A stretch of 64,000 bases of DNA from assembly GCA_020341815.1 (NCBI GenBank), contig CP070837.1, positions 1,474,607-1,538,606 on the forward strand, written 5' to 3'. Positions 3,437 to 64,000 of this stretch are shown here, one piece after another. Within the stretch, counting starts at the first letter, position 1; each line of letters starts with the position of its first letter. The stretch comes from Candidatus Omnitrophota bacterium (GTDB lineage: Bacteria; Omnitrophota; Gorgyraeia; JAFGHF01). Position numbers and translations under genes: made by a program. The notes beneath the pieces were generated by a model. That model was given only the letters and a program-made list of their open reading frames with translations, searched no databases and was not told where the DNA came from.

Positions 3437-4894
3437 ATGCGCTTTAAACGAGTGATTCTGGTAAACCCTTATTATTCGAATAGCATATTTACTATGCCTG
3501 TTTTACCTACAGGTTTAGGTTATATTGCAGAAGTTTTGAAGAAAAATAAAATCGACTACAGGGTGGTAGATTTAATGCTGGGCCACAGGCCGCATTTTTT
3601 AAGAAAACAAATATATGATTTTCGGCCCGATTTAGTAGCTTTCTCTATGATGAGCTTTATGTATAAAGATATATACGGAATGATCGGGAAAGTAAAGGAT
3701 GAGTTTTCCGATGTGAAGACCCTGGTCGGGGGCCCGCATATTTCCAGCTGCGGCGGGAGTGTCTTGGAAGAATGCGAAGCTATTGATTTCGGAATAACCC
3801 AGGAAGGCGAGGAGACCATCGAAGATTTATGCCGGCAAACGGATTTTCCGGATATAAAAAGCCTTATTTATCGGGATAACGGGACGATAAAGGTTACAGA
3901 GCCAAGGAAACCGATTGAGGATTTGGACTCTTTAGCCTTCCCCAGGTATGAAAATTTCGAGTTAAATAAATATGGCTTTGGGATAGGCATAGTTTCATCC
4001 AGGGGATGCCCTTATAAATGCATCTTTTGTTCGGCCCACGCTATTAGAAAGGAATACAGGACAAGAAGCCCGAAAAATGTAGTGGATGAGATGGAATACT
4101 GGTATAAGAAGGGATATCGCGAATTCGACTTGCAGGAAGACAACCCCACCTTTAATAAGGCCAGGGCATTTGAGCTTTGCGATGAAATAGAGAGAAGACG
4201 CCTTAGGGATTTGGTCATAATGTGCGGAAACGGCGTCAGGGCCGACAGGGTCGATAGAAAATTATTGACCAGAATGAAGGAAGTAGGATTTAAGAGATTG
4301 GCTTTTGGAGTAGAGGCAGGCAACAACAAGGTTTTGGCAAGCCTTAAGAAAGGGGAGAAGATCGAGGCGATAAAGGAAGCGATACAAACTGCGTGTGAGC
4401 TGGGATTCTTTGTCAGCATATTTTTTGTTGTCGGCTCTCCTTCCGAAACTGTCAAGGATGTAGAGGATTCCATCGATATAGCGCTGTCTTATGCGGTTTC
4501 CAATGTCAGCTTCTACAACCTGATTCCCTTTCCCGGAACAGAGTTATTTAATTGGGTCGAAAAGAACAATTATTTTATTACTCCCCCGGAGTTATATCTC
4601 AACCAGGGCGGACGCATCCAGATGGGGACAACGCCGGTTTTTGAGACTCCTGAATTTCCGGCCGAAGAGAGAAGGCGCCTCCTTAAAAAAACAAAAAGCA
4701 TCGAAAGGCATATTAAGAAAAACATTATTAATAAAAAACTGATTAAATTGTACCCTTTGAATAAGCTGATTGCCTGGATATGCAGTCTGCAGTTACTCAA
4801 ATATATGGAAGATAAGCTTACTCATTATGAAATATTCAGGCGGACCATCGGAGCGATTAGAACTAAAATCAGGCTTTTCTTCTATAAAACGTAA
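3437..4894 (+). CDS. B12-binding (class B) radical SAM enzyme, probable C-methyltransferase or related
   Basis: The N-terminus has a Rossmann-like cobalamin-binding module (RVILVNPYY...GLGYIAEVLKK...VGGPHIS). It is followed by the radical SAM motif GCPYKCIFCSAH (CxxxCxxC) and the elongated C-terminus typical of this class. Confidence 0.8.
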   Translation: MRFKRVILVNPYYSNSIFTMPVLPTGLGYIAEVLKKNKIDYRVVDLMLGHRPHFLRKQIYDFRPDLVAFSMMSFMYKDIYGMIGKVKDEFSDVKTLVGGPHISSCGGSVLEECEAIDFGITQEGEETIEDLCRQTDFPDIKSLIYRDNGTIKVTEPRKPIEDLDSLAFPRYENFELNKYGFGIGIVSSRGCPYKCIFCSAHAIRKEYRTRSPKNVVDEMEYWYKKGYREFDLQEDNPTFNKARAFELCDEIERRRLRDLVIMCGNGVRADRVDRKLLTRMKEVGFKRLAFGVEAGNNKVLASLKKGEKIEAIKEAIQTACELGFFVSIFFVVGSPSETVKDVEDSIDIALSYAVSNVSFYNLIPFPGTELFNWVEKNNYFITPPELYLNQGGRIQMGTTPVFETPEFPAEERRRLLKKTKSIERHIKKNIINKKLIKLYPLNKLIAWICSLQLLKYMEDKLTHYEIFRRTIGAIRTKIRLFFYKT

Positions 4895-4909
4895 ACTAAG
4901 GAATTTAAT

Positions 4910-6130
4910 ATGAAGGTTCTCTATATTTCCTATGACGGCGCTGCCGAGCCCATACCTCAATCCCAGGTTTTGACATATTTGAAAGAAATAAATAAAAAGG
5001 GTGTCGCTTTCTATTGGCTTTCCTTTGAGAAGAGGGATTCCCCTTTAAGATCGGCAGAGAAGCGCAAGGCCTTCAGGGAAGAGTTGTTGAAAAGCAATAT
5101 CAGGTGGTTTAGCCTGCCTTATCACAAAAGGCCTTATTTATTGGCAAAGATATTCGATATCTTAAGCGGCATACTTTATAGCTCTTACCTGGTAATCAGG
5201 TGTAAAATAAATATCGTCCATGGAAGAGGAGAAGTTTCATCCTTTATGTGCCTCATCTTAAAGAAATGCCTCTTTAAATTAAAGTTTATTTATGACCGTA
5301 GAGGATATATGGCTGAAGACTATGTGGAAGGGGGCATGTGGAAGGGCCGTGGGAGCCCTTTTTACAGGCTTTTAAAATTTATAGATAAAAGTTTACTGTC
5401 GTCTTCCGATGCGGTAGTCGTCCTTACCGAAAGAATAAAGAAAATCTTGATTGGAGAGAATGACAAAATTGCGGATAAGATTTCTACTATACCCTGTTGT
5501 GTTGATTTGAAAAAATTCAGATATAATTCATCGAAAAATATAAAACTGTTAACGGATTTAAAGCTGCAGGATAAGTTTGTTTTCATTTACCTCGGCTCTT
5601 TGGGGACCTGGTATTTATTGAATGAGATGGTAGACTTCTTCATCTTAGCCAAAAGGCAAATCCCCAATGCCCATTTTTTGATATTGTCTATGTCAGAACA
5701 CAGTGTTGTCAGAGATGTTTTCTTTCGCAAGAGCCAAACAGAGGAGGATTTTACATTATTGAAAAGCCCGCCGGGCCTGGTGCAAAATTATATCTCTTTA
5801 GCCGATGCGGCCTTAATATTCATTAAGCCGGTGTTTTCAAAGCTGTCTTCGTCTCCTACTAAATTTGCCGAGTGCCTTTCTTGCGGGCTGCCGGTCGTTA
5901 TCAACTCCAATATAGGCGATTGCGACGAATTAATCAGGCCTAATAGAATTGGAGTAATCGTAGATAAGTTCGATAACCATGGCTACCAAAAGGCCCTGGA
6001 GAAATTAAAGGGATTAATGGATGAAGGGCAGATACTTCGTCAGAGATGCCGCAAGGTAGCTGAAGACTTTTATCCTCTAAGCTTAGGAGCTGAAAAATAT
6101 TGGCGCCTTTACCGAAAGATTACATCTTAA
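4910..6130 (+). CDS. Glycosyltransferase, GT-B fold (GT4/group 1 family)
   Basis: A 406-aa protein whose C-terminal donor-binding motif (PTKFAECLSCGLPVVINSNIGDCDELIRPNRIGVIV) is typical of GT4 enzymes. Confidence 0.7.
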   Translation: MKVLYISYDGAAEPIPQSQVLTYLKEINKKGVAFYWLSFEKRDSPLRSAEKRKAFREELLKSNIRWFSLPYHKRPYLLAKIFDILSGILYSSYLVIRCKINIVHGRGEVSSFMCLILKKCLFKLKFIYDRRGYMAEDYVEGGMWKGRGSPFYRLLKFIDKSLLSSSDAVVVLTERIKKILIGENDKIADKISTIPCCVDLKKFRYNSSKNIKLLTDLKLQDKFVFIYLGSLGTWYLLNEMVDFFILAKRQIPNAHFLILSMSEHSVVRDVFFRKSQTEEDFTLLKSPPGLVQNYISLADAALIFIKPVFSKLSSSPTKFAECLSCGLPVVINSNIGDCDELIRPNRIGVIVDKFDNHGYQKALEKLKGLMDEGQILRQRCRKVAEDFYPLSLGAEKYWRLYRKITS

Positions 6131-6153
6131 TGAGGCAGGAGCGCAGTTAAATT

Positions 6154-7065
6154 ATGAAGTATTTAATTACGGGCGCAAATGGGATGCTGGCAAGTGCCCT
6201 CTGTCCGATTTTGACTGAGAGAGGCAACGAAGTTATTTCAACCGATATAAATGCTCCAGAGATGAATGCTCTGGATGTCCGTGATTCCGAAGGAGTTATG
6301 TCTTTCTTCAGAAAGAACAGGCCTGAGGTAGTAATGCATCTTGCCGCGGCAACCGATATGGATATGTGCCAGAAAAACCCTGAAGATACCTATGCCATAA
6401 ACGCCAGAGGAGTTAGGAATGTTGCCTGCGCCTGTAAAGAGGTTAGCGCCGAGATGGTTTATGTAAGCACCGGAGCGGTCTTTGACGGCAAAAAAGATGG
6501 ACCCTATATTGAGTCAGATAGAACTAACCCCTTGAATATCTATGGAGAGACTAAATTGGCGGGAGAGCATTTCCTGCAGGATATTTTAAAGAAGCATTAT
6601 ATATTCAGAGCGGGCTGGATTATAGGTGGATTTGAAAAAGATATAAAATTTGTGGGTAAAACATTGGAGCTTTTGAGAACCAGAAAAGAGCTGAACATGG
6701 TCAGCGACCGCTTTGGCAGCCCTACTTGTGTAGAAGACTTCTCAAGGAACATGCTTAAGATAGTTGAGGCTGGCTTGTATGGCCTGTACCATCTGGTCAA
6801 TAAAGGAGGGTGCTCCAGATACGATATGGCTAAGAAAATAGTGAATTTTTTAGGAAGAGACGATATTAAAATAACTCCTATACGGAATATAGATTACCCT
6901 TCAGTTACTCCCCGGGCCAGAACGGAGATAATGACTAATCACAAGCTGCAAGAGGCGGGAATGGATGATATGGTTTCCTGGGAAAAAGCTCTTCATAACT
7001 ATTTAGAGAAGCTTAAAAGCAAAAAGTTATTAGATAGAGTTATGTTAGGAGATGGGGTTGCATGA
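6154..7065 (+). CDS. rmlD: dTDP-4-dehydrorhamnose reductase family (RmlD-like) NAD(P)-dependent 4-keto-6-deoxy-sugar reductase
   Basis: A 303-aa protein with a Rossmann start (LITGANGMLASAL). NIYGETKLAGE matches the RmlD NVYGKTKLAGE motif (YxxxK), and DRFGSPT and GLYHLV match the RmlD DQYGAPT and GLYHLV motifs. Confidence 0.8.
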   Translation: MKYLITGANGMLASALCPILTERGNEVISTDINAPEMNALDVRDSEGVMSFFRKNRPEVVMHLAAATDMDMCQKNPEDTYAINARGVRNVACACKEVSAEMVYVSTGAVFDGKKDGPYIESDRTNPLNIYGETKLAGEHFLQDILKKHYIFRAGWIIGGFEKDIKFVGKTLELLRTRKELNMVSDRFGSPTCVEDFSRNMLKIVEAGLYGLYHLVNKGGCSRYDMAKKIVNFLGRDDIKITPIRNIDYPSVTPRARTEIMTNHKLQEAGMDDMVSWEKALHNYLEKLKSKKLLDRVMLGDGVA

Positions 7066-8156
7066 GGCTAAGCCCGATTAGAAGGTATCTAAAAGTTTTA
7101 TTATCATATTACTTCGGCGTTCCTCTTTATCAGCCTGAGAGCGTATCTTTAGTCATAACCGATAAATGTAACCTGAGGTGCAAAACTTGTGAATACTGGA
7201 ATCAGAAGAGTAAGGATAAGAATTTCTTGAGCCTGCAAGACTGCGAAGAGTTGTTTAGTGAGCTGGCCGGCTGCGGTGTGCGGCAGATACAATTTACCGG
7301 AGGAGAGCCTTTGTTAAGGCCTGACCTCTTCAGCATATTTCATGCGGCAAAATCTAACGGCCTTGAAATAACGCTTCTAACAAACGGCACCTTAATAAAT
7401 GAAAAGAATTGCGAAGCTATAGTTGATCTGGTGGATTCTATAAATATTTCCCTGGACAGCCCTCACTCTGAGGTTCATGACTCTATCAGGGCAATTGCAG
7501 GAACTTTTGAGAGGGCGACAGAGGCTATCCGGCTTCTTTCGGGGGCCCGGAAGAGGAAAGATAAGCAAGTAGAAATTACAGTTTGCGCTACTATAAGTAT
7601 GATGAGTTTGCATAACCCTGCGGAGATGTTAGCTTTAATAAAGGAGCTGGGCGCGGATAGGTTGATATATAATCCGGCCAGCGCAGGCTCTTATGGATAC
7701 AGCAGCTTGAAGAGCGATTTTGCCAACGAAACGATGAAGATGGGAAGATATGATGAGATGGTGGACAAAATAATCGGGCTTATGAATGGGAATGGGAGCC
7801 TCATTAAGAGCAACCCCTTCTATCTGCAGAGCTCAAAGAGATTCCTAAGAGGCGATAGGCGATATTCTTATTTTCCGTGTTACAGCGCAGGATATAACGG
7901 CCCCCTGGTAAATTATGACGGTGAGGTTTTTCCATGTTGTGTTTGGAATGTTTCTTTGGGGAATATAAGAGAAAAGCCTTTTTCTCGCATCTGGAAATCG
8001 GAAAGAACCAGACTCATCAGGAAGCGAATAAAAGATAAGGATTGCCCTATGTGTTACCATCATACGCGCACATTTGATTATATCGTGCATTCGCCGTTTT
8101 TGATTAGGAACCCCGTGGGCCTATGTAAAGGGTATCTTAAATTATTCAGATCATAA
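7062..8156 (+). CDS. Radical SAM enzyme with C-terminal SPASM/twitch-like auxiliary cysteine cluster
   Basis: The motif CNLRCKTCEYW (CxxxCxxC) lies near the N-terminus, and C-terminal Cys clusters are present (FPCYSAGYNG...FPCCVWN, CPMCYHH). It overlaps the upstream gene with an ATGA junction. Confidence 0.75.
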   Translation: MRLSPIRRYLKVLLSYYFGVPLYQPESVSLVITDKCNLRCKTCEYWNQKSKDKNFLSLQDCEELFSELAGCGVRQIQFTGGEPLLRPDLFSIFHAAKSNGLEITLLTNGTLINEKNCEAIVDLVDSINISLDSPHSEVHDSIRAIAGTFERATEAIRLLSGARKRKDKQVEITVCATISMMSLHNPAEMLALIKELGADRLIYNPASAGSYGYSSLKSDFANETMKMGRYDEMVDKIIGLMNGNGSLIKSNPFYLQSSKRFLRGDRRYSYFPCYSAGYNGPLVNYDGEVFPCCVWNVSLGNIREKPFSRIWKSERTRLIRKRIKDKDCPMCYHHTRTFDYIVHSPFLIRNPVGLCKGYLKLFRS

Positions 8157-8159
8157 ACT

Positions 8160-9473
8160 ATGAACGATAAAACGAAATTAGTGATATTAGGTGGAGGATT
8201 GGCGGGCTTAAGCGCCGCATATCATAGCGGCGGCTCAATCTATGAGAAAGAGCCTGCCGCAGGAGGGCTTTGCAGGTCCGAGCGGATTGACGGCTATACC
8301 TTTGACAGGGGTTCGCATATATTTCACGGCAGGGATCCCTATGTTTTAAATCTTTTGGAGAACGCCTTAGGCATAACTTTTAAGATGCAGTCGCGTTCCT
8401 GCTGGATTTATTCCCACGGCGTCTACACCAAGTATCCCTTTCAGGTAAACACATACGGTTTGGCGGAAAATGTGGTCCAGGATTGCCTGAGGGGATTTAG
8501 AGAGGTATGCCATAAGCCCAGAAAGAAAGAATTCGATAATTATCGGGATTGGATATATGCAACCTTCGGCAAAGGCATTGCCGAACATTTTTACATTCCC
8601 CACAGCGAGAAATTCTGGACTATTCCCGTAGAGGAGATGACTACGGATTGGCTGGATGTACGGGTGCCTATACCGAAGCTTGAGGATGTAGTCAGGGGCG
8701 CCGAATCTTATCAGACAAGGGAGTTCGGGCCTAATGCGCAATTCAGGTATCCCCGGGAGGAAGGAATGGGGAGATTACCCAGAGGCTTTTTAACAAAAGA
8801 TCTGCAGATAAGACCGGAAAAAGAAGCGGTATCCATAGATACGCACAATAAAACGATAGAATTTTCCGATGGAGAAAAGACAGATTATGAAATCCTGGTT
8901 TCCACCATTCCTGTGCCGGAGCTTATCCGATTGTTGAAGGATGTGCCCCCTGAAATTAAAAAATCAGCGGAAGGCTTAAGGTGCAACTCTATATTTTGTG
9001 TTTATATAGGAATAGAAAAAGAAAATCTAACCGATAATCACTGGGTATATTTTCCGGAAGATGAATTTCCCTTTTTCAGGATAAGCTTTCCTATGAATCT
9101 GTCGCCTTATTGCGCACCGAAGAATAGAAGCTCTATTCTGGCAGAGGTCCCTTATTCTAAATATCGGCCGATAGATAGGTCTAAAATAATAGATTCCGTT
9201 ATAGAGGCTTTGATAAGGGCTGAAATCCTGCAGAAAACCGATAAGATTGACAAGGTAGGCTCTTACGATATTGTATATGGATACCCTATATATGACCATA
9301 GCCGTAAAGACAATGTCTTCAGATTGGAGCGATATCTTAAGGAAAAATCGATACTCATCGCAGGAAGATACGGCAGGTGGGAATACCAGTGGATGCATGA
9401 CGCCATCCTGGATGGCAAGAGAGTCGCGGAAGAGGCAGATAAACTAAGCAGTGAGTGGGCCTATGGAAGATAA
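8160..9473 (+). CDS. FAD/NAD(P)-binding oxidoreductase (amine-oxidase/UDP-galactopyranose-mutase-like superfamily)
   Basis: An N-terminal dinucleotide-binding motif (LVILGGGLAGLSAAYH) is followed by ...EKEPAAGGLCRS...GYTFDRGSHIFH, typical of flavin-dependent PPOX/UGM-like proteins. Confidence 0.55.
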   Translation: MNDKTKLVILGGGLAGLSAAYHSGGSIYEKEPAAGGLCRSERIDGYTFDRGSHIFHGRDPYVLNLLENALGITFKMQSRSCWIYSHGVYTKYPFQVNTYGLAENVVQDCLRGFREVCHKPRKKEFDNYRDWIYATFGKGIAEHFYIPHSEKFWTIPVEEMTTDWLDVRVPIPKLEDVVRGAESYQTREFGPNAQFRYPREEGMGRLPRGFLTKDLQIRPEKEAVSIDTHNKTIEFSDGEKTDYEILVSTIPVPELIRLLKDVPPEIKKSAEGLRCNSIFCVYIGIEKENLTDNHWVYFPEDEFPFFRISFPMNLSPYCAPKNRSSILAEVPYSKYRPIDRSKIIDSVIEALIRAEILQKTDKIDKVGSYDIVYGYPIYDHSRKDNVFRLERYLKEKSILIAGRYGRWEYQWMHDAILDGKRVAEEADKLSSEWAYGR

Positions 9474-15855: not shown

Positions 15856-15886
15856 CAATAAACCGTGATTATCAGGAGATAGAGAT

Positions 15887-16828: not shown

Positions 16829-16842
16829 GATTGATATCAAAT

Positions 16843-17508: not shown

Positions 17509-17509
17509 A

Positions 17510-18154: not shown

Positions 18155-18199
18155 AGATTACCGCAAATCAATTTTATAAAAGGCATAAGGCGTGAAGAA

Positions 18200-19474: not shown

Positions 19475-19492
19475 ATATTCTAAAGGAATAAA

Positions 19493-50822: not shown

Positions 50823-50830
50823 GGTAGAAT

Positions 50831-51583: not shown

Positions 51584-51589
51584 AGAGGG

Positions 51590-52573: not shown

Positions 52574-52585
52574 GCAGGGAATTAG

Positions 52586-54405: not shown

Positions 54406-54406
54406 G

Positions 54407-55069: not shown

Positions 55070-55070
55070 G

Positions 55071-55967: not shown

Positions 55968-57966
55968 CGCTGCACTTTATGTATTTGACCGCATGCCTAA
56001 CGTGAGAAGGCTTATCCGATATTCTGATGAGAAAAATATCGACAAAATATTTCTCTGCCCTGTGACGGCCAATCAAGATACGACCTCTTTAATCGTTAAA
56101 CATTTTTCTTCAATAAAAAATCGTAAAATTGAAGTCATTCCATATTTAGAACATTTTAATAGACAGGCCTTTTTGGAACGCGATAATTTTATTCATTTCA
56201 TTTCTGAGTTTGGCGAAAAGCCAAGGTTCGGCGAGATTAACTTTAAAAAATACTTTAAATATCCGTTCAGTTCATTTTCCGTATGGTGGTCTTCCCTGAT
56301 ATTTGAAAAAAACCCTCTAAAAAGCGATGTGTACCATAGTTTAGTTCAATTACTTACTATACTAAAACTAAAGAAAGAATATAAATGCAAACAGCTAATA
56401 CTCGATATTGGATCGAAAGATTTATCCTGCACAATAATGCAGGATAGCATAAATAGGCAATACCATTGTATCGATTTCAAAAAATATAGAGTGCATTCAC
56501 AAATTGTTACTTTTTCAGTAAATTTCTTAAAGGGAATAAAACATTATTTTTATTTCATATATAAGATTTTTATTGTGACTGTTCATGCCAGGGGCTTAGG
56601 CTTTAGAAAAGAGATTTTAAGAAACGCCAGGTATCTCGCTATCAGTTACTTCCCTTTAATTGACAGAGAGTCTTTAAAACAAGAGAAGTTTGTTAATAAA
56701 TATTATGGCGCGCTGCAAACAGCGCTGGAAAATAAGTATAAAGACAGATTTATCTGGCTGGCAGTGTCACCCGGCATCGATGGTTTTAGTTTTCGGGATA
56801 GCGTTAAGCTGGGAAGACAGATAAATACCTGGAAATACCCGATTTATTTCCTGGAAGAATGGGTTAGCCCGAAGGACCTGCTTGTGATTATGGCCCATTA
56901 CGTTTATTTCATGATTAAGTGCATTATAAAGGTACCCTATCTTTCAAAAAGCTTCGAGTATTCTAAAGAAAGTATAAATGTCTGGAACATTTTTAAACAA
57001 GATTGGTTTTCTTCATTCGCCGGCGGAGCTTTAATGAGCAACATCTTTTATTTTAAGGCTTTTAGGAATATTTCTAATAAACTTAAATCCGGGACAGTTG
57101 TTACATACCTTGCCGAAAGTCAGCCCTGGGAAAGAACGTTAAATTTTACCCTCCATGATCAGAATAGGAATCTGAAAACCGTCGGGATAGTACATACTAC
57201 GATTCCACTATTGCTGTTACAGTTTTTCGATTCTAAAGATGATTTGCAATGGGATGAGCGCTCGAAATTTACTATGCCCAAACCGGATTATTTAGCATGT
57301 AACGGCAGGATTCCATTAGAAGTTTTTCAGGAAACAGGCTGGAGTAAAAAAAGAGCTTTTTTATGGTTCGCTATACGCTATCAGCATCTCAAAAAACATC
57401 TGCAAAAGAGGATTCCCTGGCAGAGCCGACAGAATAAAATCTTAGTCGCATTAGCGTTTAGCACCAAAGAAGCAAAGGAGTTATTATATTATATTCATCA
57501 AGCCTTCAGCGGACAGACAGATTACCAAATAATCATAAAAGGGCACTACCATGGGCTTCCCGTGCAAACTCTGATTAAGCGCTTGAATTTAGATTTTAAT
57601 AAAAATACCTTTATTTTTTCAAATGAAGAGCTGGATAGGCTTTTGCCTTTGGTAAAGGCGATGATCGTAGCCAGCTCTTCGGTTGCTTTGGAAAGCATCA
57701 CTTTCGGATGCCCGGTTATTATTCCCAGATTATCCGGCGTAATCGATATGAATCCACTTTCAGAAATTAGCGATTTGCCACTTTACGCACAAAGCCCTGA
57801 AAGGTTACGCGGCTTAGTAGATGATATCCTAACGCGAAGAGAATCCCCGGTAAATTATGAAAAATGTAAGAATTTTGTCGAGAATTACTTCGAATTCCCT
57901 GATTCCGAACACGAATTGATAGAAAAGATAGAAAGCTGTTTTGCAGCTGCCGGAAAGATGCTATGA
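55960..57966 (+). CDS. Large uncharacterised protein (668 aa), GT-B-like C-terminus; candidate glycosyl/nonulosonate transferase or capsule-biosynthesis-family protein
   Basis: The C-terminus (ILVALAFSTKEAKELLYYI...LLPLVKAMIVASSSVALESITFGCPVIIP) resembles a GT-B second Rossmann domain. The N-terminal two-thirds have no known motif and are very AT-rich. Confidence 0.3.
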   Translation: MLNAALYVFDRMPNVRRLIRYSDEKNIDKIFLCPVTANQDTTSLIVKHFSSIKNRKIEVIPYLEHFNRQAFLERDNFIHFISEFGEKPRFGEINFKKYFKYPFSSFSVWWSSLIFEKNPLKSDVYHSLVQLLTILKLKKEYKCKQLILDIGSKDLSCTIMQDSINRQYHCIDFKKYRVHSQIVTFSVNFLKGIKHYFYFIYKIFIVTVHARGLGFRKEILRNARYLAISYFPLIDRESLKQEKFVNKYYGALQTALENKYKDRFIWLAVSPGIDGFSFRDSVKLGRQINTWKYPIYFLEEWVSPKDLLVIMAHYVYFMIKCIIKVPYLSKSFEYSKESINVWNIFKQDWFSSFAGGALMSNIFYFKAFRNISNKLKSGTVVTYLAESQPWERTLNFTLHDQNRNLKTVGIVHTTIPLLLLQFFDSKDDLQWDERSKFTMPKPDYLACNGRIPLEVFQETGWSKKRAFLWFAIRYQHLKKHLQKRIPWQSRQNKILVALAFSTKEAKELLYYIHQAFSGQTDYQIIIKGHYHGLPVQTLIKRLNLDFNKNTFIFSNEELDRLLPLVKAMIVASSSVALESITFGCPVIIPRLSGVIDMNPLSEISDLPLYAQSPERLRGLVDDILTRRESPVNYEKCKNFVENYFEFPDSEHELIEKIESCFAAAGKML

Positions 57967-58880
57967 AAGAGATAAGCGTAGTCTTGACAACATATATGCT
58001 CGGTAAATATATACGAGTGGCGATAGAGTCAGTTCTCAAACAGACATTTAAGAATTACGAGCTTATTATAATTGACGATGGTTCAACCGATAGCACAGAG
58101 CAGGAGATTTTTAAATTCAAGGACGAGAGAATTAAATATATACGGCAGGACCATAGCGGCCTTCCTGCAAAGGCGAGGAATAAAGGCATCGAGATAGCTA
58201 CAGGCAAATTAATCGCTTTCTTTGACGGTGATGATTTCTGGTACCCGGGTAAACTCCAGAGATGCCTGGAGATTTTCAATAACGATTCAACGGTCGATAT
58301 CCTCTGCCATGATTTGAGTTTTTCGAGATTAAATGACGGAAAAGTATTTAAGCGAAGGTTTTTTGGGCCCTACCAGGATGATATGTATAAACAACTTTTA
58401 CTTAAAGGCAACGCCCTCACTGCATCATCAACTGTTATGAAAAGGTCCATATTTTCCGAAGATAGATACTTATTTTCTGAAGACAAGAAGTTTTTTAGCA
58501 CCGAAGACTATGATTTGTGGCTTAGGCTGGCTAAATCAAAAAGGTATCGCTTTTTTTATCTTCCCGAGATTCTTGGCGCGCACAGGGTTTTTGAAAATAG
58601 CGCAACTCTCTCAAATATCGAAAGGCATACTTTAAATATGCTCTATTTGTTTGATGAAAACGAAAAAGACCCCGGCTTTGACGAAAAGGGGCTTAAGAGA
58701 GTTATAAAAAAACGTAAATCCCAGGTTATGTTTAGCGCGGCCCTGGCATTTAATTACCACAAAAAATTTTCTCAGAGCCTGGCGTGGCATTTAAAGGCCA
58801 TTAAACAATATCCACTTTATTTAAAACCATACCTTACCTTTTTCGCTTCTCTGTTTAGAATAAAATTAGGTTATTTATAG
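57963..58880 (+). CDS. Glycosyltransferase family 2 (GT-A fold)
   Basis: ISVVLTTYMLGKYIRVAIESVLKQTFKNYELIIIDDGSTD, followed by FFDGDDFW, gives the classical GT2 DxD/DD motifs. It has an ATGA junction. Confidence 0.85.
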   Translation: MKEISVVLTTYMLGKYIRVAIESVLKQTFKNYELIIIDDGSTDSTEQEIFKFKDERIKYIRQDHSGLPAKARNKGIEIATGKLIAFFDGDDFWYPGKLQRCLEIFNNDSTVDILCHDLSFSRLNDGKVFKRRFFGPYQDDMYKQLLLKGNALTASSTVMKRSIFSEDRYLFSEDKKFFSTEDYDLWLRLAKSKRYRFFYLPEILGAHRVFENSATLSNIERHTLNMLYLFDENEKDPGFDEKGLKRVIKKRKSQVMFSAALAFNYHKKFSQSLAWHLKAIKQYPLYLKPYLTFFASLFRIKLGYL

Positions 58881-58889
58881 GTATAAATA

Positions 58890-60734
58890 ATGCTTAAAAA
58901 CGAAAATATAATATGTATTTCATCGATTGACTGGGATTTCAACTGGCAGGGGCATCAGGAGATAATGTCTACTTTCGCCAGGAATAACAACAGGGTCTTA
59001 TTTATAGAAAATACAGGCGTACGAGTACCTACCCTGAAGGACCTTCCCCGATTAAAAAAACGACTGAGCAATTGGCTTAAAGGGATAAGTGGAATAAGGA
59101 AAGAAGAAGAGAATCTGTTTGTATTTTCGCCGCTGGTAATCCCATTTCCTTACTCCAGGATAGCCAGATGGATTAACAGGTATTTGTTGCTTTCAACCTT
59201 GAAGAAGTGGATTAAGGTAATGGACTTTAATGACCCGATTATCTGGACATTTTTACCCACAGGCATAAGTCTGGATTTAATCGCTAACATAGACAAAAAG
59301 ATGTCGGTATATTACTGCATTGCCGAATTTACAAAACTGGTCAGAGACTCCCGGAAGATAAGAAGGACTGAAAAAGAGCTGCTGAAAAAGGCCGATCTAA
59401 TCTTTGCGCAGGGTGAGAAACTTAAACAATGGTGCGAAAGTTATAATTCCAATGTGACCATTTTCCCATTCGGGGTTAACTCCGAGGCCTTCCATAATAC
59501 AACTTTGGACGGCAAGGAAAGCCTTCCCGATTTAAAGGGCATAAAAAGGCCGATTATCGGTTATATAGGAGGATTGCATAAACATATAGATTATGAGCTG
59601 ATAGAGTGTTTGGCCGCGAGGAATCCTCATTGGTCCTTTCTTTTTGTCGGCCCCGTGCAGACAGATGTCGCCAGAATTGGAAGGCTTGACAATGTCTTTC
59701 TCGTTGGAGAGAAAAAACACTTCGATTTGCCAAAATATATAGGTGCATTTGATGTATGCCTGATTCCTTATCTTTTGACCGACTATACCTCCACCGTTTA
59801 TCCCACAAAATTGAACGAATATCTCATTATGGGAAAGCCCGTGCTTTCCACAGACTTGCCGGAGGTTAGAGCTTTTAATCAGAAATATGGAAATGTGCTT
59901 ATGATCGGGCAAACCACGGACGAGTTCAAGGCTTATATAACTGAAGTATTGGAAAAAAACGACAAAGATATGGTTGGCAAAAGGATTAAGGCTGCGCAGG
60001 AAAACAGCTGGAAAAAAAGAATCGAACAAATGAGTAATTTGATTGAAGAGGAGATTGAAAGGAAGAAACATGATAAAGACCTAAGGTGGAAGGAAGGCTT
60101 GCGTAAGTTTTACAGGCAGTCCCGCAGAAGCTTAAAGGCCACGGCTTTCGCCTGTTTGCTGGCCTATCTCTTATTATTCTATACGCCATTCTTATGGTTT
60201 GCGGCCAGGCCTTTAAAAATATCCGAACCTCTTCAGGCAGCTAATGCTATTGTAGTTTTTGGAGGCGGAGTTGGCGAAGGTGGCAGCCCCGGTAAAAGCA
60301 CTATTGAAAGAGCCCGGTATGCCGGCGAATTGTATAAAAGCGGATATGCCAATCATATTATTTTTTCGTCAGGTTATAGTTTTAAATATAACGATGCAGA
60401 AAATATGAAGCTCGTTGCTCTTTCAGCCGGCGTTGCCGAGAAAGATATAATTTTAGAACAGAAGGCAAATAGTACTTATGAAAATGCCAGGTTTACAGGA
60501 GAGATAATAAATGATTACGGCTGGAGCTCAATTTTATTAGTTAGTTCTCCTTACAATATGCGCAGGGCATCGTTGGCGTTTAAAAAACTAAATAAGAACT
60601 TAAAGATTACTTATGCGCCGATAAGCAATCCTCAATTTTATAGACGTGACGGAAAGGTAAAATGGGAGCAAATCAGAGCTATAGGACATGAATATTTAGG
60701 GATTTTGTATTATTTTATTAAAGGATATATTTGA
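58890..60734 (+). CDS. Fusion protein: GT-B glycosyltransferase (GT4/group-1-like) – transmembrane helix – DUF218 (YdcF/ElyC-like) domain
   Basis: Residues about 1–390 have a GT4-like C-terminal motif (VCLIPYLLTDYTSTVYPTKLNEYLIMGKPVLSTDLPEVRAF). A hydrophobic segment (ATAFACLLAYLLLFYTPFLWFAA) follows. The C-terminal roughly 170 aa (ANAIVVFGGGVGEGG...ANSTYENARF...SILLVSSPYNMRRASLAF) match the DUF218 pattern. Confidence 0.65.
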   Translation: MLKNENIICISSIDWDFNWQGHQEIMSTFARNNNRVLFIENTGVRVPTLKDLPRLKKRLSNWLKGISGIRKEEENLFVFSPLVIPFPYSRIARWINRYLLLSTLKKWIKVMDFNDPIIWTFLPTGISLDLIANIDKKMSVYYCIAEFTKLVRDSRKIRRTEKELLKKADLIFAQGEKLKQWCESYNSNVTIFPFGVNSEAFHNTTLDGKESLPDLKGIKRPIIGYIGGLHKHIDYELIECLAARNPHWSFLFVGPVQTDVARIGRLDNVFLVGEKKHFDLPKYIGAFDVCLIPYLLTDYTSTVYPTKLNEYLIMGKPVLSTDLPEVRAFNQKYGNVLMIGQTTDEFKAYITEVLEKNDKDMVGKRIKAAQENSWKKRIEQMSNLIEEEIERKKHDKDLRWKEGLRKFYRQSRRSLKATAFACLLAYLLLFYTPFLWFAARPLKISEPLQAANAIVVFGGGVGEGGSPGKSTIERARYAGELYKSGYANHIIFSSGYSFKYNDAENMKLVALSAGVAEKDIILEQKANSTYENARFTGEIINDYGWSSILLVSSPYNMRRASLAFKKLNKNLKITYAPISNPQFYRRDGKVKWEQIRAIGHEYLGILYYFIKGYI

Positions 60735-60738
60735 AATC

Positions 60739-62976
60739 ATGAGAATAGCGCTAATATTTCCACCTTATACACATAAGATATTTTCGGAGAACCTGGCTGT
60801 TGTAGATGAGGAATTTTGTGTTGCCCCGCCTATAATTTTGGCCTATGTAGCTGCTATTCTTGAGGCGCATGGGCATAAGGTAATGCTGCTCGATGCTAAG
60901 GTATTGAGTTTGTCAAAGGAGGAGGCGCTTGAGAGAATAAGGGCCTTTAAACCGGACATTTTAGGGTTTAGAGCGGAGACTTATCACTTTCATGATGCCT
61001 TGGATTGGGTGCGTTATCTAAAACACAGACTTAATGTTCCTGTCGTTGCCGGGGGTCTTAATCTATCCATGTATCCTAAAGAAACCCTTTCTCATAGCGA
61101 GATAGATTACGGAATCGTTGGGGAGGCGATAGAATCATTACCAAGGCTGGTTTCTGCGTTAGAATATGGAGACAGCGTAAGTGAGATACCCGGTGTCATA
61201 CATAGAAATAAAGAGAAAGGAGATGTTATTATTAATTCACCGGCAGAAAAATATGTAGATTTCGATTCTTATCCGTTTCCTGCCCGGCATCTTTTGCCAA
61301 ACGAAAAATACTATTCCTTCATATCACAACGCAAGAATTTTACGGTTATGGTTACGGCTACGGGATGCCCCTTCAAATGTAATTTTTGCGCTATTCCACA
61401 TCTCTATCGGCCGCGTTCGGTCAAAAATGTTATTGATGAGATTGAAGCCTGCTACCGCGACTTTAACGTAAGAGAGATAGACTTTTTTGACCCGGTATTA
61501 TTTATAAATAAAAACAGGGCACTGGAATTATTTCATGAGATTAAAAAGCGTAAACTAGATATAGAATGGTCTTGCCGTTCGAGGGTTGATGCGGTTGATA
61601 ATGAAATATTGCGGGAGGCCGCAGGCGCGGGATGCAGGCAGATATATTATGGAATAGAGTCGGTAGACCCCCAAATATTGCATACTATAAAAAAAGAGAT
61701 AGGTCCGGCACAAGTCAAGCAGGCGATTAAATGGTCAAAGAGATACGGCATAAGGGCAATGGGCTTCTTTATGGTAGGCAATCAGGGAGAGACAAAAGAA
61801 AGTGTGCGGCGCACAATCGGATTTGCCAAGGATTTGGGGTTAGAATTCATCCAGGTCTGCAGGACAATCGCAAAGCCCGGAACAAATCTTGATAAGATTA
61901 TGATAGAAAAAAGCGGAAAGGACTACTGGAGGGAGCATGTCTCGGGAAAAAAGATAGAAGGACGTCTTCCTACTTCCTGGTCTACCTTGTCGGAGCCGGA
62001 AATAGAAGCGCTTACAAAGGAGTTTTATCTGAAGTTTTACTTTCGTCCAAAAATTATATGGAGCAGGGTTCTTCAGCTTAAATCTATAAGTGAACTCACC
62101 AGATATATAAAAGTAGCATGGAGGATGCTTTTACAAAAATCAGAGCTATATTCCCGCGTCCTTACCGATACCTCTGAGGCAGAAGGGTTCCTGGCCCAGA
62201 GCGATAGCTATTTATCGCAGGCTAAAGAGTGCAGAGTAGCAGTCGTCATTCCGACTTACAATGAGAAAGATAATATAGAGGGAATAATCACTACTATTTT
62301 GGATATTTTGCCTAATGCTTATATTGTTGTAGTTGATGACAAATCACCTGATGGAACAGGGGATATCGTTCGAAATATTGCCGATAGAGACAAGCGCATA
62401 CATTTTATCAGTCGCAGCGGAGAGAAGGGCTTGGGATTGGCATATATTACGGGATTTAAATATGTGCTGGAGAGCTTACCGGTAGATTACATCTTTGAGA
62501 TGGATGCGGATTTTTCGCATAATCCCAGGTATCTTCCGATATTTTTAGAATATGCAAAAGAATGTGATTTGATTATAGGTTCCCGTTTCTTGAGGAGAGT
62601 GAGTATAAAAAATAGAGCCCGCTGGCGCAATATTATATCGATAACCAGCAAATGGTTTATAAATGCGCTCATTGGAACTCGCCTCACAGATATGACTACA
62701 GGCTTTAAGTGTTTTCAAAAAAAGGTCTTGGCAGCTATAGAATTGGACAAAATGCACTCTAAGGGGTATGCCTTTCAAATTGAAATGTCATTTTTGGCGA
62801 AAAGCAGGGGATTTAGCATTAAGGAATTGCCTATTTTGTTTATAGAAAGAAGTAAAGGCTATTCTAAATTGTCTTTAAAAATTATCTTCGAAGGTTTTTT
62901 CTTAATCTGGAGACTGGCAATCAAGAGATTATTGGGATTTGAAGTTAAAGATGGACAAAATATATATAGAAAATAG
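60739..62976 (+). CDS. Fusion protein: B12-binding radical SAM enzyme (N-terminal ~470 aa) + GT2 polyprenyl-phosphate glycosyltransferase (DPM1/ArnC-like, C-terminal ~250 aa)
   Basis: The N-terminus shows PVVAGGLNLS (B12 module) and TATGCPFKCNFCAI (CxxxCxxC). The C-terminus shows VAVVIPTYNEKDNIEGII...IVVVDDKSPDGTGDI...KGLGLAY...EMDADFSHNP, the classic dolichol/undecaprenol-phosphate glycosyltransferase signature. Confidence 0.8.
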   Translation: MRIALIFPPYTHKIFSENLAVVDEEFCVAPPIILAYVAAILEAHGHKVMLLDAKVLSLSKEEALERIRAFKPDILGFRAETYHFHDALDWVRYLKHRLNVPVVAGGLNLSMYPKETLSHSEIDYGIVGEAIESLPRLVSALEYGDSVSEIPGVIHRNKEKGDVIINSPAEKYVDFDSYPFPARHLLPNEKYYSFISQRKNFTVMVTATGCPFKCNFCAIPHLYRPRSVKNVIDEIEACYRDFNVREIDFFDPVLFINKNRALELFHEIKKRKLDIEWSCRSRVDAVDNEILREAAGAGCRQIYYGIESVDPQILHTIKKEIGPAQVKQAIKWSKRYGIRAMGFFMVGNQGETKESVRRTIGFAKDLGLEFIQVCRTIAKPGTNLDKIMIEKSGKDYWREHVSGKKIEGRLPTSWSTLSEPEIEALTKEFYLKFYFRPKIIWSRVLQLKSISELTRYIKVAWRMLLQKSELYSRVLTDTSEAEGFLAQSDSYLSQAKECRVAVVIPTYNEKDNIEGIITTILDILPNAYIVVVDDKSPDGTGDIVRNIADRDKRIHFISRSGEKGLGLAYITGFKYVLESLPVDYIFEMDADFSHNPRYLPIFLEYAKECDLIIGSRFLRRVSIKNRARWRNIISITSKWFINALIGTRLTDMTTGFKCFQKKVLAAIELDKMHSKGYAFQIEMSFLAKSRGFSIKELPILFIERSKGYSKLSLKIIFEGFFLIWRLAIKRLLGFEVKDGQNIYRK

Positions 62977-63619
62977 AGATAAAAGCTACATAAATAGATA
63001 TAAGCTTTCCCGCAGGATGAGACAGATATTGTCGGCCATACAAAACTATAAGCCGGGTGAGGGACTTTCTCTCTTGGAAATAGGCGCTGCCGATGGCATT
63101 CTATTGGAATTTTTGCATAGAAATCTAAATTTAGGTAAAGCCATTGGCATTGAGCCTTCACTGGAATGTATTCAAGTTGGCAAACATAAAAGCGTAAAAT
63201 TGGTTCAGGCAATCGGCGAAAGATTGCCTTTCAGAAAGGACTGTTTTGACATTATAGTAGCGGCTTCGGTGATAGACCACTTAACTGATGTAAATATGTT
63301 TTTGAATGAGGCGCACAGAGTGTTGAAGTCAAACGGCATCCTGGTTCTGACTGCTGTTGTGCCTTTCTATGATAGATTGGCTAATATAACGGGGCTTGAC
63401 AAAGGACTGCACTCCCATGTCCAGACTTTTAATACGCCGGAACTAAAGAATTTATTAGAGGAGAATCAATTTAAGACTTTACTGGCTGAAAGGTTTGCGC
63501 TTCCGAGTTTTGGGCTTTTGCCCTTTGAAAACGCAATAGAGCATATATTGAAAAAATTACGCCTGGGCTTTATAATGTTTTATTCTTTAATTGTAGCGGA
63601 AAATAATTCAGGTAATTAA
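62939..63619 (+). CDS. Class I SAM-dependent methyltransferase (Methyltransf_11-like)
   Basis: Motif I is LLEIGAADGILLEFL, followed by ...GIEPS..., and the motif IV region is FDIIVAASVIDHLTD. The start may be the Met at 62951, since the gene overlaps the upstream gene. Confidence 0.7.
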   Translation: MKLKMDKIYIENRDKSYINRYKLSRRMRQILSAIQNYKPGEGLSLLEIGAADGILLEFLHRNLNLGKAIGIEPSLECIQVGKHKSVKLVQAIGERLPFRKDCFDIIVAASVIDHLTDVNMFLNEAHRVLKSNGILVLTAVVPFYDRLANITGLDKGLHSHVQTFNTPELKNLLEENQFKTLLAERFALPSFGLLPFENAIEHILKKLRLGFIMFYSLIVAENNSGN

Positions 63620-63626
63620 CGGTGAT

Positions 63627-64000
63627 ATGAAAACAACCGACCTAATTAAAGATGTTTTGCTGGTATATTTAAGCCAGGAGCATTCAGATTATTTGATTTC
63701 AGAGAGGCTTGACTATGGGATGAAACGGGTTCCCAAACTGGGCTTTATGTACCTTGCCGCAGTCCTTGGAGAAAAAGGCGTGCATGCTCACATAATGGAT
63801 CAGGAGTTGCAACCTTTTACATTTGAGGATTTAGCCGGGAGGTTGCAAAAAGAGAAGTTCGGATTTATCGGATTCTATTCAACTACGGCGATAAAATCAA
63901 AACTTTTACGCTACATAAAAAGACTTAGACTGTCGAATATCGATATTCCGATAATCGTGGGAGGCCCGGGTTATTTTGCCGCCCAAGAATATCTTGAAGC
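63627..64000 (+). CDS. N-terminal fragment (3' end off-window) of another B12-binding radical SAM-type protein
   Basis: The ATG at 63627 opens a frame that runs without a stop to the window end. LVYLSQEH...GFMYLAAVLGEKGVHAHIMD...IGFYSTT...PIIVGGPGYFA is the cobalamin-binding Rossmann-like module seen in the other class-B enzymes here. Confidence 0.5.
   Translation, partial: MKTTDLIKDVLLVYLSQEHSDYLISERLDYGMKRVPKLGFMYLAAVLGEKGVHAHIMDQELQPFTFEDLAGRLQKEKFGFIGFYSTTAIKSKLLRYIKRLRLSNIDIPIIVGGPGYFAAQEYLE

Follow-up and report, generated by a model that had tools for sequence, protein, structure and literature searches.

We analysed a 64-kb stretch of contig CP070837.1 of a Candidatus Omnitrophota bacterium (assembly GCA_020341815.1, positions 1,474,607 to 1,538,606 of the forward strand; this whole stretch is hereafter called the window), in which ten genes for radical S-adenosylmethionine (rSAM) enzymes lie among genes of glycan synthesis. 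The window is probably one long surface-glycan super-locus built from portable cassettes, in which the rSAM enzymes serve as optional tailoring steps on conventional cores. Such a core would consist either of a sugar-nucleotide dehydratase, an aminotransferase, a NeuB-type synthase and a cytidylyltransferase, or of a polyprenyl-phosphate glycosyltransferase together with a GT-C transferase. The argument is comparative: rSAM genes are present on or absent from loci that are otherwise syntenic, and hence they show the pattern of optional tailoring enzymes. Missing from relatives are gene 7062 (we name genes by their start position in the window) in locus L006, a pair of genes for a B12-type rSAM enzyme and a multinuclear non-haem iron oxidase (MNIO) in L011, and, in L013, genes 14134 and 31713 and the whole block 18200-26563. 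The relatives compared were the syntenic loci L006 and L011, another Omnitrophota genome (L013), an Omnitrophota single-amplified genome (L003), metagenome-assembled genomes of a Planctomycetia (L004), a Nitrospira (L008) and a Dehalococcoidales (L009) bacterium, assembly GCA_041643295.1 (L010), and the contig L001, which overlaps the window; the relatives found in a scan of representative-genome contigs were 57-73% identical.

Radical SAM genes in a co-directional glycan locus

The ORF list of the window holds 54 open reading frames (ORFs) of at least 150 aa on the + strand, with hardly any intergenic space; one 88-aa gene and a partial gene at each window end come in addition, and the three - strand ORFs in the list are nested inside + strand genes. 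All of the roughly 56 window genes are co-directional (+), with gaps mostly of 30 bp or less, and the locus runs past the window end, where the overlapping contig L001 allowed us to follow it for 2.4 kb. Pfam and NCBIfam matches indicate glycan functions throughout, namely glycosyltransferases of the GT-C (PMT_2), GT4, GT2 and GT1 classes, dehydratases and epimerases of the short-chain dehydrogenase/reductase (SDR) type, DegT aminotransferases, N-acetyltransferases, a PIG-L deacetylase, AsnB, a sulfotransferase, an ABC exporter, three NeuB paralogues and three CTP_transf_3 cytidylyltransferases. The co-orientation of the rSAM genes and their interleaving with sugar-nucleotide enzymes and glycosyltransferases, as described in an earlier reading of the sequence (the original prediction), can thus be seen directly in the ORF and Pfam data. 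Per-gene GC content ranges from 0.32 to 0.46 and varies blockwise across the window, which, as a compositional feature, is consistent with a mosaic origin of the locus. Rfam and tRNA scans of the whole window gave no match, cobalamin riboswitches and tRNA genes included, and the window contains no B12 gene.

The CxxxCxxC motif occurs in exactly nine complete + strand ORFs (3437, 7062, 14134, 20528, 27286, 29569, 31713, 49815 and 60739), compared with a mean of 0.075 and a maximum of 2 motif-bearing proteins when the residues of the 54 proteins were shuffled, and all nine score above the gathering threshold of Pfam Radical_SAM (PF04055). These nine are complete ORFs at the starts given by the original prediction, which had counted ten. 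The tenth, 63627, is truncated by the window end and includes only its B12-binding domain inside the window; its motif lies beyond, on L001, where the gene is complete (472 aa), passes PF04055, and combines B12-binding and Radical_SAM domains with CX3CX2C at residue 217. With rSAM genes assumed (not genome-measured) to make up 1-4% of the background, at least ten of them would occur in 56 genes with a probability of 2e-10 to 7e-5.

Seven of the ten proteins have class B architecture, that is, an N-terminal domain of the PF02310 type ahead of the rSAM core. B12-binding modules had been proposed for all seven; PF02310 itself is above its gathering score in 3437, 14134, 60739 and 63627, and in 20528, 27286 and 31713 it stays sub-threshold (19.7-28.5 bits vs 32.1), yet these three align to the same domain. 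All seven proteins align over one N-terminal Rossmann-like domain with GG and D..V.GEGE motifs in common, and give long alignments to the curated B12-rSAM families of NCBIfam. Because their pairwise identity is only 21-29%, the seven are, as far as sequence can tell, old and separate lineages and not a recent expansion; recent duplication as their origin can be ruled out on the same figure.

The remaining three proteins, 7062, 29569 and 49815, had been described as carrying SPASM- or twitch-like cysteine clusters. SPASM PF13186 passes in each of them; their C-terminal cysteines form CX17-18C...CX2C only, and CX2CX5CX3C, part of the seven-cysteine motif of a full SPASM domain, is absent from all three. 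Since only four C-terminal cysteines are present, we assign them from their sequences to the BtrN-like twitch enzymes (truncated SPASM, about four Cys ligands, BtrN-like fold), with one auxiliary cluster, rather than to the full SPASM type. In the PDB, the AlphaFold2 (AF2) model of 49815 (predicted local distance difference test score, pLDDT, 86) matches BtrN best (E 5.6e-13, target TM-score 0.69-0.74); next come the peptide maturase SuiB, then DesII, MoaA and BlsE, which act on sugars or nucleotides, and anSME. This fits the analogy to BtrN drawn beforehand.

Cassettes and their variation among relatives

In L013, cassette B is uninterrupted and runs DegT, SDR, PIG-L, cytidylyltransferase, WbqC, B12-rSAM, MNIO, twitch rSAM, NeuB, DegT and a LIC12162-like gene; the genes shared with the window are 45-78% identical (45-72% for the part from WbqC through B12-rSAM, MNIO and twitch rSAM to NeuB). 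The window version (13163-31711, + strand, as are all window genes described below) has three insertions: B12-rSAM_2 between DegT and SDR, the block 18200-26563, and B12-rSAM_5 after NeuB. Its first half (13163-18154; Pfam, NCBIfam) comprises a short DegT-like protein of 324 aa (13163-14137), the inserted B12-rSAM_2, whose start it overlaps (14134-15855; CX3CX2C at residue 224, B12-binding 66 bits), an SDR dehydratase/epimerase, the PIG-L deacetylase and a cytidylyltransferase. The corresponding DegT, SDR, PIG-L and CTP_transf_3 genes of L013 are contiguous and 64-78% identical, with no rSAM gene between DegT and SDR. The DegT protein of the window covers only the first ~250 of the 360 Pfam profile positions; it appears from sequence to be a genuine short form and not a pseudogene, because the L013 orthologue (344 aa, 76% identical) is also short.

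The second half of cassette B (26594-31711; Pfam) consists of WbqC, B12-rSAM_4 (27286-28815), an MNIO/DUF692 protein (MbnB/TglH/ChrH, PF05114; 28815-29579), twitch rSAM_2 (29569-30633) and a divergent NeuB, NeuB_a (30668-31711), which scores below both the NeuB and the PseI cut-off; GC content is 0.32-0.33 across 26594-29579. L011 has SDR, PIG-L, cytidylyltransferase, WbqC, twitch rSAM and NeuB without the pair of B12-rSAM and MNIO genes, its WbqC, twitch and NeuB products being 61-69% identical to those of the window, so that a twitch rSAM gene lies directly upstream of NeuB in the window, L011 and L013. Neither L011 nor L013 has an rSAM gene after NeuB, the position taken in the window by B12-rSAM_5 with its C-terminal tetratricopeptide repeats (TPR_19; 31713-33428; CX3CX2C at residue 247, Radical_SAM 66 bits, B12-binding 28.5 bits and thus sub-threshold). 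The deposited product of 29569, named 'SPASM domain-containing protein', has 287 aa (81% of the ORF) and by its length would start near Met68, which falls within CX3CX2C (C62/C66/C69). The longer ORF is probably the correct one, since homologues of 350-361 aa cover 99% of it.

The inserted block between cytidylyltransferase and WbqC (18200-26563, 8.4 kb) is absent from this position in both L011 and L013. In order, it encodes a DUF4910/M28-like protein, an AAC(3)-like N-acetyltransferase, a carrier protein, B12-rSAM_3 (20528-22360; CX3CX2C at residue 274), a 398-aa protein, a C45/AAT-like acyltransferase (a weak match of 35 bits), a class I methyltransferase and a DltA-like adenylating enzyme (25094-26563; AA-adenyl-dom 222 bits, DltA 231 bits, both below cut-offs). 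The carrier protein (20265-20531; 88 aa, PP-binding PF00550 27.1 bits vs 20.8, WDSVGH serine motif) was missed by the original prediction. Its gene fills the 228-bp gap 20300-20527 (no other intergenic gap within the locus exceeds 45 bp) and ends with a stop codon that overlaps the 20528 start, giving translational coupling with B12-rSAM_3. The deposited proteins identical to the 3437 and 49815 products are UCB56953.1 and UCB56994.1; since these accessions are 41 apart, which fits the ORF count only with the carrier gene, we suggest that the deposited annotation calls this gene too.

Cassette A (421-13166) opens with a PMT_2/ArnT-like GT-C membrane glycosyltransferase (421-2091; Pfam PF13231), followed by a second one (2102-3430; PF13231). 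Both proteins have 8-11 hydrophobic segments and are 51% and 34% identical to the products of the syntenic L006 genes, and a further ORF upstream of the window (contig L002) encodes a third enzyme of this type. B12-rSAM_1 (3437-4894; 485 aa, CX3CX2C at residue 191, Radical_SAM 86 bits, B12-binding 54 bits) belongs to a family of at least 1608 homologues, some of them fused to class I methyltransferases (P0063, P0091). The rest of the cassette (4910-13166; Pfam) comprises a GT4 glycosyltransferase, an RmlD-like reductase, twitch rSAM_1 (7062-8156; CX3CX2C at residue 36, SPASM 45.6 bits, cysteines 273/292/293/328/331/355), an FAD amine-oxidase-like protein, a second GT4, AsnB and a transglutaminase-like protein. 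This order recurs in L006 at 34-72% identity (48-69% for the part 4910-13166), without the twitch gene 7062 and with an extra B12-rSAM gene that adjoins both a gene for a methyltransferase-GT2 fusion and a PMT_2 gene. At the end of the cassette (10584-13166; L006 15978-19646), the AsnB-type amidotransferase stands beside the transglutaminase-like protein, which has an N-terminal hydrophobic segment; the pair is reminiscent of the C and B proteins of lasso peptides. We rejected a lasso-peptide reading of the pair, since it has no precursor, AsnB has a full glutaminase domain and the pair is conserved within a glycan block.

The same genes bear on the idea that the parts at ~10.5-13.2 kb and 20.2-30.6 kb form a natural-product cluster embedded among glycan genes, similar to those for peptides made on the ribosome and modified after translation (RiPPs) or nonribosomal peptide synthetases (NRPSs). 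This would agree with the AsnB/transglutaminase-like pair, with the PP-binding and adenylation domains, with an rSAM/SPASM protein as maturase, and with the MNIO match, which is above the Pfam cut-off (57 bits vs 25) and comes with weak matches to ApyH, HvfB and BufB; moreover, the best NCBIfam match of 20528 is the RiPP C-methyltransferase subfamily TIGR03975, accompanied by PhpK, and ApyD is among the best for 3437 and 14134. However, the MNIO match covers residues 97-228 only, the equivalog models give 36-59 bits vs 310-600, and all other family scores are likewise far under their cut-offs. Around 28815, neither a partner gene nor one for a precursor peptide was found, and the genes are too close together to leave room for a precursor; the only gap of more than 45 bp in the locus is filled by the carrier gene; condensation and thioesterase domains are absent. 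The trio of B12-rSAM, MNIO and twitch rSAM lies between WbqC and NeuB in two genomes. We therefore regard a RiPP- or NRPS-like cluster as very improbable, and retain the reading of a glycan super-locus with tailoring enzymes. In both Omnitrophota genomes that have it (the window and L013 5571-6338), the MNIO gene lies between the B12-rSAM and twitch rSAM genes, just upstream of NeuB.

Cassette E (49071-57966; Pfam, NCBIfam) is conserved at 53-71% identity in L009 and L010 and partly in the Nitrospira locus L008. It contains, in order, a cytidylyltransferase (49071-49814), twitch rSAM_3 (49815-50822), an SDR, two methyltransferases, a PGDH-like 2-hydroxyacid dehydrogenase, a HAD phosphatase, an SDR epimerase and a LIC13510-like protein of 668 aa (55960-57966; TIGR04326 189 bits vs 250). 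The family of twitch rSAM_3 has at least 870 homologues, with identities of 60-80% for the best 120, and its Cys252/270/318/321 are invariant in 35 homologues. In L008, the cassette E core is followed immediately downstream by two more B12-rSAM genes (4287-7612; 536 and 551 aa). Since this locus has twitch and B12-type rSAM genes, their combination in glycan cassettes is not restricted to Omnitrophota.

Cassette F (57963-64000, continuing outside the window; Pfam) runs GT2, GT1-DUF218, a B12-rSAM::GT2 fusion (60739-62976), a class I methyltransferase (62939-63619) and B12-rSAM_7 (63627 onwards, cut by the window end). The rSAM part of the fusion is nearest to AprD4; its GT2 part is nearest to the dolichol-P-mannose synthase 5mlz (4e-27) and also matches ArnC in the PDB sequence search. 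Such a fusion is rare, since full-length examples account for 2 of the best 150 cluster representatives. Past the window end, L001 continues with a methyltransferase and then an LPG_synthase_TM (PF03706) flippase-like membrane protein (L001 5222-5884), and such polytopic or flippase-like proteins come after 63627 and its orthologues; the group of fusion, methyltransferase, B12-rSAM, polytopic membrane protein and GT1/DUF218 is kept in L003 and L004 at 55-73% identity. The metagenomic proteins P0333 (1879 aa), P0363 (2633 aa), P0379 (1826 aa), P0346 and P0390 each have two to three separate stretches that match the 60739 query. In giant proteins of Omnitrophota, radical SAM domains are reported to co-occur with sugar-metabolism domains (2026 preprint 10.64898/2026.06.07.730766).

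The B12-rSAM enzymes of cassettes A and F are close to membrane GT-C enzymes and to a lipid-phosphate GT2, and partial NCBIfam matches include HpnJ, HpnR and a ladderane lipid rSAM; they might thus modify the lipid carrier or membrane lipids in the manner of HpnR/HpnP, ladderane or glycerol dialkyl glycerol tetraether (GDGT) enzymes, and not a sugar. All these scores are far below cut-offs, however, and the genes are surrounded by those for sugar enzymes and class I methyltransferases instead of lipid synthesis, so that we hold an action on lipids to be improbable and keep to sugar tailoring.

Cassette D (37165-49046; Pfam, NCBIfam) contains no rSAM gene, the rSAM genes being confined to the non-canonical cassettes that flank it. 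It begins with a canonical, clustered legionaminic acid pathway (block 37165-46327) of LegB (485.6 bits vs cut-off 475), LegC (420.7 vs 420), a PglD-like acetyltransferase, NeuB/LegI (515.7 vs 399.65), NeuC/LegG (503.4 vs 235.9) and a CBS-nucleotidyltransferase; the PglD-like protein, the CBS-NTP transferase and the CTP_transf_3 protein of the block have Pfam support only. The guess that the locus makes nonulosonates is thereby borne out, LegB, LegC, NeuB/LegI and NeuC/LegG all passing their NCBIfam models and a twitch rSAM lying upstream of NeuB in three genomes. The cassette further includes a divergent NeuB (NeuB_c), a DUF4915 protein, a cytidylyltransferase, a sulfotransferase and an ABC exporter. 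The NeuB-like gene, the third in the window and highly divergent (142 bits vs a cut-off of 400), stands inside the legionaminic block and is followed by the DUF4915/TIGR03032-like gene (43220-45510). Two tandem copies of the 24-bp unit ATGTTACAAAAGGTCAATTTCATT (47211-47258) lie where the ABC-exporter ORF begins and overlap the sulfotransferase gene's end, so that the exporter ORF has its first eight codons in duplicate.

Between cassettes B and D, two soluble proteins of ~618 aa are encoded (33425-37145). The first is LIC12162-like (41.5% identical to the L013 protein that bears PF27859 LIC12162; TIGR04331 36 bits); the second, 35286, has no match in Pfam, NCBIfam or PDB sequence searches. The large proteins of 617 and 668 aa likewise gave no PDB sequence match and nothing in Pfam. 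The soluble proteins of 33425-37145 and 55960-57966 (617-668 aa) close nonulosonate cassettes, and the family names found at the cassette ends (TIGR04326; TIGR04331/PF27859 LIC12162) are O-antigen-associated; judging from their sequences, we put these proteins forward as candidate nonulosonate transferases.

Candidate chemistry of the radical SAM enzymes

We propose that the twitch enzymes would employ a 5'-deoxyadenosyl radical and one auxiliary [4Fe-4S] cluster and would act independently of O2 on a sugar intermediate, free or linked to a cytidine nucleotide, to oxidise, epimerise or rearrange it as do BtrN, DesII and BlsE; two of them would feed or follow NeuB or the cytidylyltransferase. 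Cytidine-nucleotide-linked substrates are suggested because 49815 adjoins a cytidylyltransferase and 29569 lies between WbqC and NeuB, and because a homologue in Brachyspira (see below) adjoins rfbF. The gene after the rSAM gene of cassette E is an SDR gene in the window and L009 and an aminotransferase gene in L008 and L010; by the logic of BtrN/BtrS, this alternation could reflect a keto product of the rSAM enzyme.

For the seven B12-domain enzymes, the proposed first step would be hydrogen abstraction from unactivated carbons, with transfer of a methyl group from methylcobalamin as the most likely outcome. Their substrates would be of three kinds: nonulosonate precursors (27286, 31713, 14134); an acyl or aminoacyl side chain, tethered to a carrier protein and afterwards joined to an amino sugar by an N-linkage (20528); and lipid-linked monosaccharides that are made by fused or adjacent DPM1/ArnC-type GT2 enzymes, flipped, and transferred by PMT_2 GT-C enzymes (60739, 63627, 3437). 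Enzyme 20528 may act on a tethered acyl or aminoacyl group rather than on a sugar, because the carrier gene is coupled to it and a DltA-like adenylating enzyme is encoded nearby; the carrier protein, acyltransferase, methyltransferase and adenylating enzyme together look as if they served to make an unusual side chain of the N-acyl or aminoacyl type. According to PDB entry titles, CysS and TokK were crystallised with pantetheinylated substrates. As to the third kind, methyltransferase-GT2 and methyltransferase-B12-rSAM fusions occur in relatives, and PMT_2 genes stand beside B12-rSAM genes in the window and L006. Since these fusions and neighbours join a lipid-phosphate sugar synthase, a class I methyltransferase, a B12-rSAM and a GT-C, they point to an ArnC/ArnT-like route in which the lipid-linked sugar is modified before transfer. 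CysS and CndI extend O-methyl groups; by analogy, and speculatively, the recurrent pairing of B12-rSAM and class I methyltransferase would allow such an extension here. Overall, the cell surface would come to carry several nonulosonic acids and other sugars with heavy decoration.

The strictest form of this idea is that of the original prediction, in which all seven B12 proteins are cobalamin-dependent sugar C-methyltransferases (GenK/GenD1/Fom3 type), the other three are of the BtrN/NeoN type, and the product consists of heavily C-methylated and epimerised nonulosonates. The uniform class B architecture, the twitch cysteine pattern with BtrN as best match, the rSAM genes that directly flank NeuB_a and the class I methyltransferases that adjoin several rSAM genes all fit. 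Against it speak the coupling of 20528 with a carrier protein and an adenylating enzyme, the fusion between 60739 and a lipid-phosphate glycosyltransferase, and the cobalamin-free dehydratase AprD4 as the strongest solved relative for both 60739 and 31713; family cut-offs are not reached. We consider this strict form rather unlikely: the glycan context assumed for the enzymes holds, but an action of all of them on sugars does not follow for 20528. C-methylation or epimerisation of sugars by the window rSAM enzymes, taken by itself, is plausible by analogy.

Comparison with curated families and solved structures leads to a different alternative, namely that some of the 'B12' enzymes are cobalamin-independent and, similar to AprD4 or HpnJ, dehydrate, deoxygenate or ring-rearrange sugars with no methylation. 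AprD4 is the top PDB sequence match of 60739 (5.6e-26), 31713 (1.7e-20) and 20528 (1e-6), and among NCBIfam models 60739 matches HpnJ (TIGR03471) best, in an alignment that spans almost its full length. The AF2 model of 3437 (pLDDT 92) matches class B structures with Foldseek E-values of 1e-23 to 1e-17; AprD4 has the highest TM-score (0.74-0.78) and TsrM ranks best by E-value, followed by MgmA/QCMT, OxsB, CysS and TokK, and the model matches TsrM, OxsB, TokK, CysS and MgmA across both domains. In AprD4 and ArsL the Rossmann-like domain is present and cobalamin is not bound (PMC12931638), and thus a need for B12 cannot be read from a domain match. On the other hand, the AprD4 model NF033070 gives 104-108 bits for 31713 and 60739 and lower scores for the rest, vs a cut-off of 500, and HpnJ gives 168 vs 578; four proteins pass the Pfam B12-binding model; and the methyltransferase fusions and neighbours suit methyl chemistry. 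Cobalamin-free chemistry of this kind in some of the enzymes is possible, if doubtful, and we keep methyl transfer as the most likely outcome for the B12-type enzymes. Besides AprD4, the solved sequence relatives of these enzymes comprise MgmA/QCMT, CysS, TokK, TsrM and OxsB; for 14134 the best PDB sequence match is 9ccb (4e-14), which is MgmA/QCMT (PMC12931638), and for the twitch enzyme 7062 it is BlsE (2.6e-13).

Within NCBIfam, 3437 and 14134 match BchE, ApyD and HpnJ partially, with BchE (TIGR02026) scores of 164 and 147, respectively, vs a cut-off of 481. Neither these scores nor that of 60739 with HpnJ amount to membership in a BchE/HpnJ-type family, the outcome that had been set against a carbohydrate role at the outset; on sequence grounds both families appear to rank top only as generic class B similarity. 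The best matches of 27286 are MJ_1487 and Sden_1168, that of 31713 is the P-methyltransferase Sden_1168 (154 vs 575), that of 7062 is AhbD/NirJ, and those of 29569 and 49815 are a tungsten-cofactor maturase and spiro-SPASM. The PhpK, KedN5, Sden_1168 and HpnR models are all far below cut-off for the B12-rSAM proteins. Spiro-SPASM (TIGR04321; 510 positions, cut-off 250) gives ~72 bits for 29569 and 49815 at model positions 226-502 only, well under family membership, and the adjacent cytidylyltransferase 49071 has no TIGR04321 match at E<=1e-10; a 'split spiro-SPASM' is therefore a tentative idea here.

Several of our observations weigh against the proposed tailoring. None of the ten rSAM proteins reaches the cut-off of any curated NCBIfam family, the best matches being three- to ten-fold below, and therefore the chemistry is assigned by distant analogy only; the functions proposed for these proteins are read from sequence, context and predicted structure. 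For most B12-rSAM proteins, AprD4 ranks first or second among solved relatives, and 27286 has no PDB sequence match at E<=0.01. The domain by itself does not imply cobalamin binding in any of the seven B12-type proteins, nor the B12 requirement from which an anaerobic, cobalamin-replete lifestyle had been deduced, given that AprD4, a solved relative, has this domain but binds no cobalamin (PMC12931638). Neither an initiating phosphoglycosyltransferase nor Wzx or Wzy is encoded in the window to point to LPS, capsule or protein as the acceptor. To our knowledge, only peptide substrates are known for the MNIO family. The alternation of SDR and aminotransferase genes in cassette E is ambiguous, since a keto acid formed by the PGDH-like dehydrogenase could equally explain it, and for this reason we rejected it as clean proof of a keto product of the rSAM enzyme. 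As for lifestyle, an anaerobic one agrees with general knowledge of Omnitrophota.

It is a tentative proposition, and one we would not count on, that the cassettes encode sugar chemistry without characterised precedent on cell-surface glycans. Possibly, CMP- or lipid-linked nonulosonic acids undergo radical oxidation or epimerisation and C-methylation under anaerobic conditions. A second possibility, by analogy with CysS, is that B12-rSAM enzymes and class I methyltransferases extend O-methyl into O-ethyl or O-isopropyl groups. A third is that MNIO acts on a sugar, not a peptide, in the B12-rSAM/MNIO/twitch trio upstream of NeuB.

Relation to known systems and significance

The closest precedent for the gene content is the 36-kb plasmid pBHWA1 of Brachyspira hyodysenteriae, which carries glycan/rfb genes, some of them linked to colonisation: loss of some pBHWA1 genes correlates with reduced colonisation (PMC4267127). 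As in the window, radical SAM genes are mixed with glycan genes there, seven of the SPASM type lying in an anaerobic host near those for glycosyltransferases, HAD hydrolases and an epimerase as well as rfbC and rfbF, and six of the seven are homologous to the window twitch enzymes (25-30% identity, E down to 1e-32, same Cys pattern). In contrast to the window, no NeuB is annotated on pBHWA1, which has rhamnose and CDP-glucose genes instead. When a plasmid collection was searched by tblastn with B12-rSAM 3437, pBHWA1 was not among the best 25 of 63 records; the precedent is therefore established for the twitch type only. The density of rSAM genes that had been called extraordinary is thus high, with ten genes, and has a precedent in the seven rSAM genes of pBHWA1 (PMC4267127). 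The window is an extreme example, with ten rSAM genes and seven B12-type lineages, of a known kind of system, and not a new kind.

Among single enzymes, BtrN, the butirosin 2-deoxy-scyllo-inosamine dehydrogenase and twitch prototype, shares with the window twitch proteins the N-terminal CX3CX2C and a single C-terminal set of four cysteines, CX17C...CX2C; the window proteins are only 15-18% identical to it and are ~90 aa longer N-terminally. Unlike BtrN, DesII and BlsE, they are encoded in surface-glycan cassettes, next to cytidylyltransferases or NeuB, and not in aminoglycoside or nucleoside antibiotic clusters. TsrM, MgmA/QCMT, CysS and TokK share the two-domain fold of the 3437 model, a Rossmann domain and an rSAM barrel, at 16-21% identity, and the pantetheinylated substrates of CysS and TokK recall 20528 beside its carrier protein; the context in the window is glycan, however, and not antibiotic, RiPP or methyl-coenzyme M reductase. 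AprD4, the radical SAM diol dehydratase of apramycin C3'-deoxygenation, acts on an amino sugar and is the nearest solved sequence for three of the B12-type proteins, but no AprD3-like reductase partner was identified in the window.

In hopanoid biosynthesis, HpnJ acts on lipid-linked glucosamine after the GT2 enzyme HpnI. By this pathway logic, a GT2 and a B12-type rSAM enzyme serve one lipid-linked sugar, and in 60739 the two are fused; the GT2 domain of 60739 differs from HpnI in being of the dolichol-P-mannose synthase/ArnC type, and the window has no hopanoid genes. The Campylobacter-type legionaminic pathway (LegB/C/H/I/G/F, with a PtmE-like nucleotidyltransferase) is mirrored by the expected genes clustered at 37165-46327; here the rSAM genes lie in the neighbouring cassettes, the block itself having none. 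Leptospira O-antigen-named families (LIC12162, LIC13510, spiro-SPASM) match cassette proteins weakly or partially.

Aminoglycoside, nucleoside and moenomycin pathways provide known cases of sugar tailoring by radical SAM enzymes (PMC12931638). In the library searched, we found no paper joining radical SAM enzymes with nonulosonic acids and nothing on spiro-SPASM; none of the 25 best-ranked papers on nonulosonate or flagellin glycosylation mentioned radical SAM, nor did a paper on Leptospira nonulosonic acids mention rSAM genes.

Recognition, whether by phages, hosts or partner cells, is shaped by nonulosonic acids and other sugars of the surface. The known decorations of these sugars are acyl, amidino, O-methyl and similar groups, and they are installed by non-radical enzymes. 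The locus offers four conserved and widespread cassettes for enzyme discovery, namely the cytidylyltransferase/twitch rSAM pair, the B12-rSAM/MNIO/twitch trio, the B12-rSAM::GT2 fusion and the carrier-coupled B12-rSAM, and the cassettes have natural comparison loci that lack the rSAM genes. Brachyspira hyodysenteriae, whose pBHWA1 carries homologues, is a cultured anaerobe in which the biology could be tested; Leptospira is suggested by family names only. If the enzymes do C-methylate CMP- or lipid-linked sugars, oxidise them anaerobically or carry out alkyl extension on them, they would represent new enzyme classes for glycobiology, and part of the very large uncharacterised sequence pool of class B radical SAM enzymes would be explained.

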